Shown here one piece after another: positions 30,965 through 31,097 of a stretch of 64,000 nt of DNA (within the stretch, counting starts at the first letter, position 1; each line of letters opens with the position of its first letter). This DNA comes from Escherichia coli (GTDB taxonomy: Bacteria; Pseudomonadota; Gammaproteobacteria; Enterobacterales; Enterobacteriaceae): NCBI RefSeq assembly GCF_003334385.1, contig NZ_QOWN01000014.1, one strand, 5' to 3'. A program made the position numbers and the translations under genes. The notes under the pieces are model-generated. The model had not been told where the DNA came from. It made no database searches and saw only the letters and a list, made by a program, of their open reading frames with translations.

Positions 30965-30994
30965 GATGCTCTCCCAAATATGAAATCTCTTGCA

Positions 30995-31015
30995 GGCATT
31001 ACAAGAATCATGCCA
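30995..31015 (-). promoter_or_regulatory. Candidate sigma54 (-24/-12) promoter of pspG
   Basis: Reverse-complement reads TGGCATGATTCTTGTAATGCC: GG at -24 and TTGT-type -12 element with correct spacing, about 30 nt upstream of the pspG ATG. Confidence 0.5.
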
Positions 31016-31097
31016 AAAATAATCTATTGATTTAACAGCAAAACGCCCCGCGACGGTGCGCAGGGCGTGGTGAATTTGACTACTTTTTGGTGAAAAG

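Follow-up and report, generated by a model that had tools for sequence, protein, structure and literature searches.

The dusA-pspG spacer of Escherichia coli as the regulatory region of pspG, an unlinked transcription unit of the PspF regulon

As a stand-alone member of the PspF regulon, pspG is already known and has been in the literature since 2004 (Lloyd et al., 2004, J Biol Chem 279:55707; Green & Darwin, 2004). In Yersinia enterocolitica the gene is also unlinked, lies downstream of dusA and has a sigma-54/PspF-dependent promoter (Green & Darwin, 2004, J Bacteriol 186:4910). Expression is induced by secretin or pmf stress and is repressed through PspA (PMC3709507, PMC3041696, PMC3467454). 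The reported induction is about 20-fold, compared to about 100-fold for pspA, and PspF binds to a single pspG enhancer (UAS), compared to two for pspA (PMC3709507). The K-12 promoter of pspG (yjbO), pspGp, corresponds to sigma-54 site OS40 (Bonocora et al., 2015). It is the same locus as that analysed here, with an identical 17-mer and no difference of substance. A requirement for rpoN and for the ATPase of the activator is reported in the literature, and microarray studies show that the output of PspF is restricted to the pspA operon and pspG. Lloyd and colleagues are said to have found in 2004 that IHF assists pspG activation and that expression of the gene depends on it.

The regulatory region of pspG resembles that of E. 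coli pspA, which has the core TTGGCACGCAAATTGTA, the same unusual T at -12 and the same activator, PspF. The PspF sites of the two share an AATTC[GA]C[CT]A core, and in pspA an IHF site also lies between enhancer and promoter. However, there are two full UAS in pspA (about -126..-80), which overlap the divergent pspF promoter, whereas pspG has one dyad and a half-site. Also unlike pspA, pspG is downstream of a co-oriented gene, the predicted terminator of which is inside the enhancer-promoter loop. The Yersinia locus that we compared keeps TGGCACGTTTCTTGTA and the UAS core GTTAGTCAATTTGACCAC, and in Y. vastinensis the sigma-54 element is 206 nt from the ATG owing to extra leader sequence.

We analysed a 64,000-nucleotide stretch of the E. 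coli chromosome (the window), in which 30965-31097 is exactly the 133-bp spacer between dusA and pspG. Both genes and the elements of the spacer are given in minus-strand reading. We conclude, with a probability of about 95%, that this spacer is the complete and already characterised regulatory region of pspG, and that pspG forms the second transcription unit of the PspF regulon, unlinked to the first. The anatomy of the region, its identity with K-12, its conservation and the covariation of a hairpin were observed here; sigma-54 binding, dependence on PspF and IHF, and induction come from the work of others. We infer where exactly the enhancer begins and ends, where transcription starts and how efficient the terminator is.

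The dusA gene (tRNA dihydrouridine synthase A) was identified at 31098..32135 (-) from the ORF list, from matches to NCBIfam TIGR00742/NF008774 (581/560 bits) and from RefSeq (1038 nt). Its TAA stop codon is at 31100-31098. The pspG coding sequence, including the stop, is at 30722..30964 (-), with the ATG at 30964-30962 and the stop codon at 30724-30722; it is annotated as such in RefSeq and is preceded by a Shine-Dalgarno sequence, GGGAGAG (30969..30975), of which the GGAG core is conserved. The product is a hydrophobic inner-membrane protein of 80 aa that passes the NCBIfam equivalog TIGR02975 phageshock_pspG (90.1 bits, cut-off 53.7, residues 2-64 covered). The ORFs flanking pspG match DusA and NADPH:quinone reductase (NCBIfam), and the gene order in RefSeq, for an identical E. 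coli stretch, is zur, DUF2713, dusA, pspG, convergent qorA, dnaB, alr. A tblastn search of the 64-kb window gave no match for PspF or for PspA-E homologues, thus pspG is unlinked from the psp operon. An earlier sequence-only reading of this DNA had described PspG as an 80-aa protein encoded by a stand-alone gene between dusA and qor, and the family match, the RefSeq order and the lack of psp genes in 64 kb agree with that description.

There are only 3 differences from K-12 MG1655 over 566 aligned bases (window 30545-31105), a stretch that extends from the last dusA codons to just past the pspG/qor terminator. The regulatory spacer (31105-30989) matches K-12 except for one base at -5 (window 30994), which is T here and A in K-12. 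The two further substitutions are outside the spacer, at 30925 in pspG coding sequence and, just past the shared terminator, at 30546, which falls within the 3' end of qorA, the convergent gene. Because of this near-identity, experiments done in K-12 transfer to the window. A 741-bp piece around the spacer, annotated dusA/pspG, is present in 5426 of 5426 complete E. coli genomes, and the 120-bp regulatory region in 5425 of them, with one lacking it. The E. coli set contains about 5430 copies of the dusA-pspG region, and four of these are on records labelled as plasmids.

For comparison across the Enterobacterales, we took one genome per species. This yielded 80 loci, of which 79 were analysed, as one, in which the pspG match was truncated, was excluded from the analyses of upstream sequence. 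The genera include Escherichia, Citrobacter, Salmonella, Enterobacter, Klebsiella, Raoultella, Kluyvera, Leclercia and others, to Yersinia, Rahnella, Biostraticola and Brenneria. In all 79 loci with enough flanking sequence, dusA is immediately upstream of pspG on the same strand. In an alignment of 72 sequences, the conserved blocks of the spacer are the 35 nt after the dusA stop, the arms of a hairpin (but not its loop), a T-run, the TCAA and TTA of an IHF site, the -24 and -12 elements, and the Shine-Dalgarno sequence.

Within the spacer we identified a sigma-54 core promoter, TTGGCATGATTCTTGTA, at 31000..31016 (-), with GG at 31014/31013 (-25/-24) and GT at 31002/31001 (-13/-12). The string TGGCATGATTCTTGTAATGCC, which the sequence-only reading had given as the promoter, is found at 31015-30995 (-). 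The element TGGCAT-N5-TTGTA (TGGCATGATTCTTGTA, 31015-31000) has the exact consensus spacing, and its sole departure from the consensus TGGCAC-N5-TTGCW is T for C at -12. The pattern TGGCAYN5TTGYW matches once in the window, at the pspG site, where 0.58 matches are expected by chance. We also scored the window with a position weight matrix trained on the 41 other intergenic sigma-54 sites that Bonocora et al., 2015 (PMC4591121) list from ChIP-seq in their Table 1. The pspG site has the top score in 64 kb on either strand (17.3 bits, against a training median of 15.7), and other matches are at 11975-11991 (14.9 bits) and 22328-22344 (14.4 bits). A score of 17.3 bits is nevertheless reached in 20% of simulated 64-kb windows, and window-wide the motif by itself is statistically unexceptional. 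We infer that the chance of such a match on the correct strand within 133 bp is about 2e-4. The site is significant because of its position, its conservation in 79 loci and its published binding by sigma-54.

The window and each of the 79 loci, 80 sequences in total, have the -24/-12 element in the form TGGCA[CT]G-N4-TTG[T]AAT, with five variable spacer bases. In a single case among the 80, that of Citrobacter werkmanii (about 2445-2460 of its locus), the GG at -24 is changed to GT (TGTCAT), which should weaken sigma-54 binding. In Salmonella arizonae/diarizonae (two loci, 2415-2500) about 34 bp of extra sequence, containing a GC-rich, REP-like palindrome, separates the sigma-54 element from the ATG. 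Extra sequence of about 150 bp is found in the same interval in Yersinia vastinensis (2295-2500 of its locus), and looks ERIC-like. In both Salmonella and Yersinia the extra sequence lengthens the pspG leader.

TTGGCATGATTCTTGTA coincides with a peak found for sigma-54 by ChIP-seq upstream of pspG (OS40), which was flagged as previously confirmed, and pspG belongs to just five such genes that are up-regulated by sigma-54 overexpression (PMC4591121). The dusA>pspG spacer was recovered by gSELEX with RpoN holoenzyme (PMC8743547), and the orthologous Salmonella site, TGGCATGATTTTTGTAAG, was bound by sigma-54 in ChIP-chip (PMC3844500). As to whether the two other matrix matches are genuine sigma-54 sites, the pspG site is the only one found in the ChIP-seq paper (PMC4591121) between about 4.22 and 4.28 Mb in old K-12 coordinates, a range that covers the window except its last ~12 kb (about 4.28-4.29 Mb). 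Counting from the -24/-12 element, the predicted transcription start is at 30989 (-), which would give a 5' UTR of 25 nt, in agreement with the 'Distance 25' given for pspG in Table 1 of PMC4591121. A scan for sigma-70-like promoters on the pspG strand found none within the spacer. The promoter proposed for pspG by the sequence-only reading is borne out by its position, by the 79 loci and by the published ChIP-seq and gSELEX data, which shows that a true sigma-54 promoter can be picked out from the letters alone.

Upstream of the core promoter is a probable PspF enhancer, the core of which is a 15-bp imperfect dyad, TAGTCAAATTCACCA, at 31068..31082 (-93..-79). Within the regulatory region of pspA, TAGTCAAATTCACCA is matched best by the 15-mers TAGTGTAATTCGCTA and TGATGAAATTCGCCA, each identical at 11 of 15 positions, and going by coordinates in the literature these are probably UAS I and UAS II of pspA. 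In the pspF-pspA region of K-12, the motifs AAATTCGCCAC and TAATTCGCTAAC, to which the two 15-mers correspond, occur 20 bp apart at about -121..-90, presumably where the literature places UAS II and UAS I. The dyad is the most conserved non-coding block of the region and is kept in Yersinia, Rahnella and Brenneria. A strict regular expression for it missed about a third of the loci (e.g., TCGTC variants in Enterobacter); where the dyad was detected, the distance from its centre to -24 is 62-63 bp in 49 of 55 loci.

The right half of the dyad is a TTCACCA (31074-31068), and a second TTCACCA is found 20 bp upstream, at 31088..31094 (-105..-99), in a block that is conserved in Enterobacteriaceae. 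The arrangement TTCRCYA-N13-TTCRCYA is unique in the window (0.01 expected), and the 20-bp spacing also occurs in pspA (ATTCGCCA/ATTCGCTA). The distal half-site probably belongs to the PspF enhancer. Based on its sequence we assign the dyad as the likely counterpart of the published single pspG UAS. The literature describes one UAS, whereas the sequence has a dyad and, in addition to it, a conserved half-site. The whole enhancer fits within the spacer, starting 3 nt past the dusA stop codon. The promoter had been placed at the 3' end of dusA by the sequence-only reading, but the enhancer does not extend into that gene.

An IHF consensus match, AATCAATAGATTA (WATCAANNNNTTR), is at 31020..31032 (-43..-31) and is one of 6 such matches in the window. 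This predicted site sits between the enhancer and the core promoter. In the alignment its TCAA and TTA positions are conserved, whereas the N4 between them varies. An IHF-like match was found in 69 loci, and in 56 of these its distance from TGGCA is constant at 17 nt. Putative PspF and IHF sites, for which the sequence-only reading had suggested a search upstream of the promoter, are thus both present.

We identified an intrinsic-terminator-like element of dusA at 31034..31068 (-), based on a terminator scan, folding and covariation. It consists of a GC-rich hairpin plus a T-run (-79..-50). The hairpin begins 30 nt past the dusA stop and lies between the UAS and the IHF site, with its 5' arm abutting the PspF dyad. 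The stem is 10 bp long (ACGCCCTGCG/CGCGGGGCGT, 8 GC pairs), encloses a 6-nt loop, cACCGT (31068-31043), and is followed by TTTGCTGTT. The folding energy of the RNA is about -21 kcal/mol (z = -3.1). In the 72 distinct sequences compared, pairing holds for 96.8% of cells and compensatory double changes occur in 8 of 10 pairs, with the loop-closing pair varying between GC, AU, UA and CG. None of 500 shuffles reached any of four hairpin measures, and register-shifted controls pair at only 37-60%. The frequent U-G pairs are permitted only in dusA-sense RNA.

These features fit a dusA intrinsic terminator that is kept as an RNA structure, and termination is predicted for the majority of dusA transcripts, some 25 nt ahead of the -24 element. 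Some read-through is likely, because the U-tract is short (UUUUGCUGUU). The Term-seq supplementary tables that we searched for 3' ends contain no rows for dusA or pspG. It had been proposed that dusA read-through and an enhancer-dependent promoter must coexist within ~130 bp. The distance is correct (133 bp), but simple coexistence is not what the covarying hairpin and T-run between the enhancer and the IHF site indicate. If the terminator is indeed nested in this way, dusA transcription and PspF/IHF occupancy could affect each other, via transcriptional interference or protein-modulated termination.

The T at -12 (window 31001) is found in 75 of the 80 sequences; three have A, one has G and one has the consensus C. 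In pspA the motif is likewise TTGT, in both E. coli and Salmonella, and among the 42 intergenic-sense sigma-54 sites in Table 1 of PMC4591121 only pspA, pspG and ygeW have TTGT. The -12 T thus appears to be a maintained trait of PspF-dependent promoters. The sequence-only reading had called the -12 element imperfect, which is true with regard to the consensus, but its recurrence across species and in pspA argues against a casual imperfection. The conserved T could reflect PspF-specific tuning of closed-complex stability or of basal leak.

The elements described above suggest how pspG would be activated. Sigma-54 RNA polymerase would occupy TGGCAT-N5-TTGTA (31015-31000) as a closed complex, and PspF would bind the enhancer centred near -86 (TAGTCAAATTCACCA with the TTCACCA half-site 20 bp upstream). 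IHF would bend the DNA at AATCAATAGATTA, about -37, and this would allow PspF to reach the polymerase. Membrane stress would free PspF from PspA, and ATP hydrolysis would then open the promoter. Transcription would begin near 30989 and yield pspG mRNA with a 25-nt leader, and the transcript probably runs through PspH to a bidirectional terminator at 30586-30564. The interval between enhancer and IHF site would double as the dusA terminator, insulating pspG from upstream sigma-70 transcription.

We considered whether pspG could mainly be the tail of a sigma-70 read-through transcript of dusA and pspG, with its sigma-54 site being one of the many non-productive ones in E. coli. In favour of this, dusA and pspG have the same orientation, are separated by 133 bp and keep their synteny in all loci, the U-tract of the dusA terminator is short, and many sigma-54 sites without detectable transcription have been reported (Bonocora et al., PMC4591121). 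However, a conserved and covarying terminator hairpin is located between the genes, and purifying selection clearly acts on the UAS and IHF blocks. In addition, pspG is among the few genes raised by sigma-54 overexpression and is PspF-regulated, its induction together with the psp operon is published, and loss of stress induction in rpoN or pspF mutants is reported in the literature. Read-through as the main source of pspG mRNA is thus very improbable. That the -24/-12 match is a functionless chance occurrence is less credible still, to the point of being negligible. The expectation of 0.58 pattern matches per window and the 20% of random windows that reach the matrix score might seem to favour chance, but from Escherichia to Brenneria each of the 79 loci has the element in place although the bases next to it drift, and sigma-54 binding has been published both in vivo and in vitro. 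Together with this conservation, the ChIP results in the literature refute the chance reading.

The identity of the activator is a separate question. Another enhancer-binding protein, notably NtrC, could drive the pspG promoter, alone or in addition to PspF, in which case nitrogen status, and not only membrane stress, would control the gene. In gSELEX, NtrC alone recovered the dusA>pspG spacer (58% intensity; PMC8743547), but this is binding in vitro only, and the passages of that paper considered here contain no pspG follow-up. The NtrC consensus, TGCACC-N5-GGTGCA, was not seen by eye in the spacer, whereas the conserved upstream block resembles the PspF sites of pspA. The restricted PspF output seen on microarrays, the pspA operon and pspG, also argues against NtrC. 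We consider its involvement improbable, if somewhat less so than read-through, and retain PspF as the activator that acts through sigma-54 at this spacer.

The value of the locus for discovery is low, as the pspG promoter has been in the literature and databases since 2004 and has been found again by ChIP-seq, ChIP-chip and gSELEX. It is a compact annotated example of 133 bp that accommodate, interleaved with one another, a core promoter and an IHF bend as well as an enhancer and a terminator. The -12 T and the nested terminator are the sole mildly new points, and are footnotes for sigma-54 tuning and for transcriptional insulation. That both the conserved T and the terminator within the enhancer-promoter loop are functional, and apparently undescribed, design features is an idea that we regard as rather unlikely.

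Downstream of pspG, the sRNA PspH was located in the 3' UTR, at 30555..30665 (-), by transfer from the K-12 annotation (ncRNA pspH b4758, NC_000913.3). The window is identical to K-12 across the whole PspH interval, with the nearest difference (30546) outside it. PspH acts as a sponge of Spot 42 in an Hfq-dependent manner, and it may be transcribed from a promoter of its own (PMC5145812). It ends at a bidirectional terminator hairpin (30564..30586) that serves the convergent qorA and pspG/PspH and was found by the terminator scan on each strand. The sigma-54 promoter may thus also feed this sRNA. Just past the pspG stop is a perfect 6-bp inverted repeat, CTAAGG-N6-CCTTAG (30690-30712, -), without a T-run. 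Upstream of PspH as it is, this repeat may form a stem that stabilises the mRNA or serves in its processing.

Upstream of dusA, the DUF2713 ORF is intact and encodes 330 aa (32496-33488, -). For the same region, the K-12 annotation gives two genes, yjbL (84 aa) and yjbM (235 aa), and the K-12 copy looks split. Elsewhere in the window, matches at the Rfam gathering level were obtained on the plus strand for the sRNA sraL (15718-15858), a lysine riboswitch (60280-60476) and STnc430 (58092-58241), and on the minus strand for four copies of the REP-derived naRNA4 (8409-8480, 44418-44488, 48647-48717 and 58307-58377).
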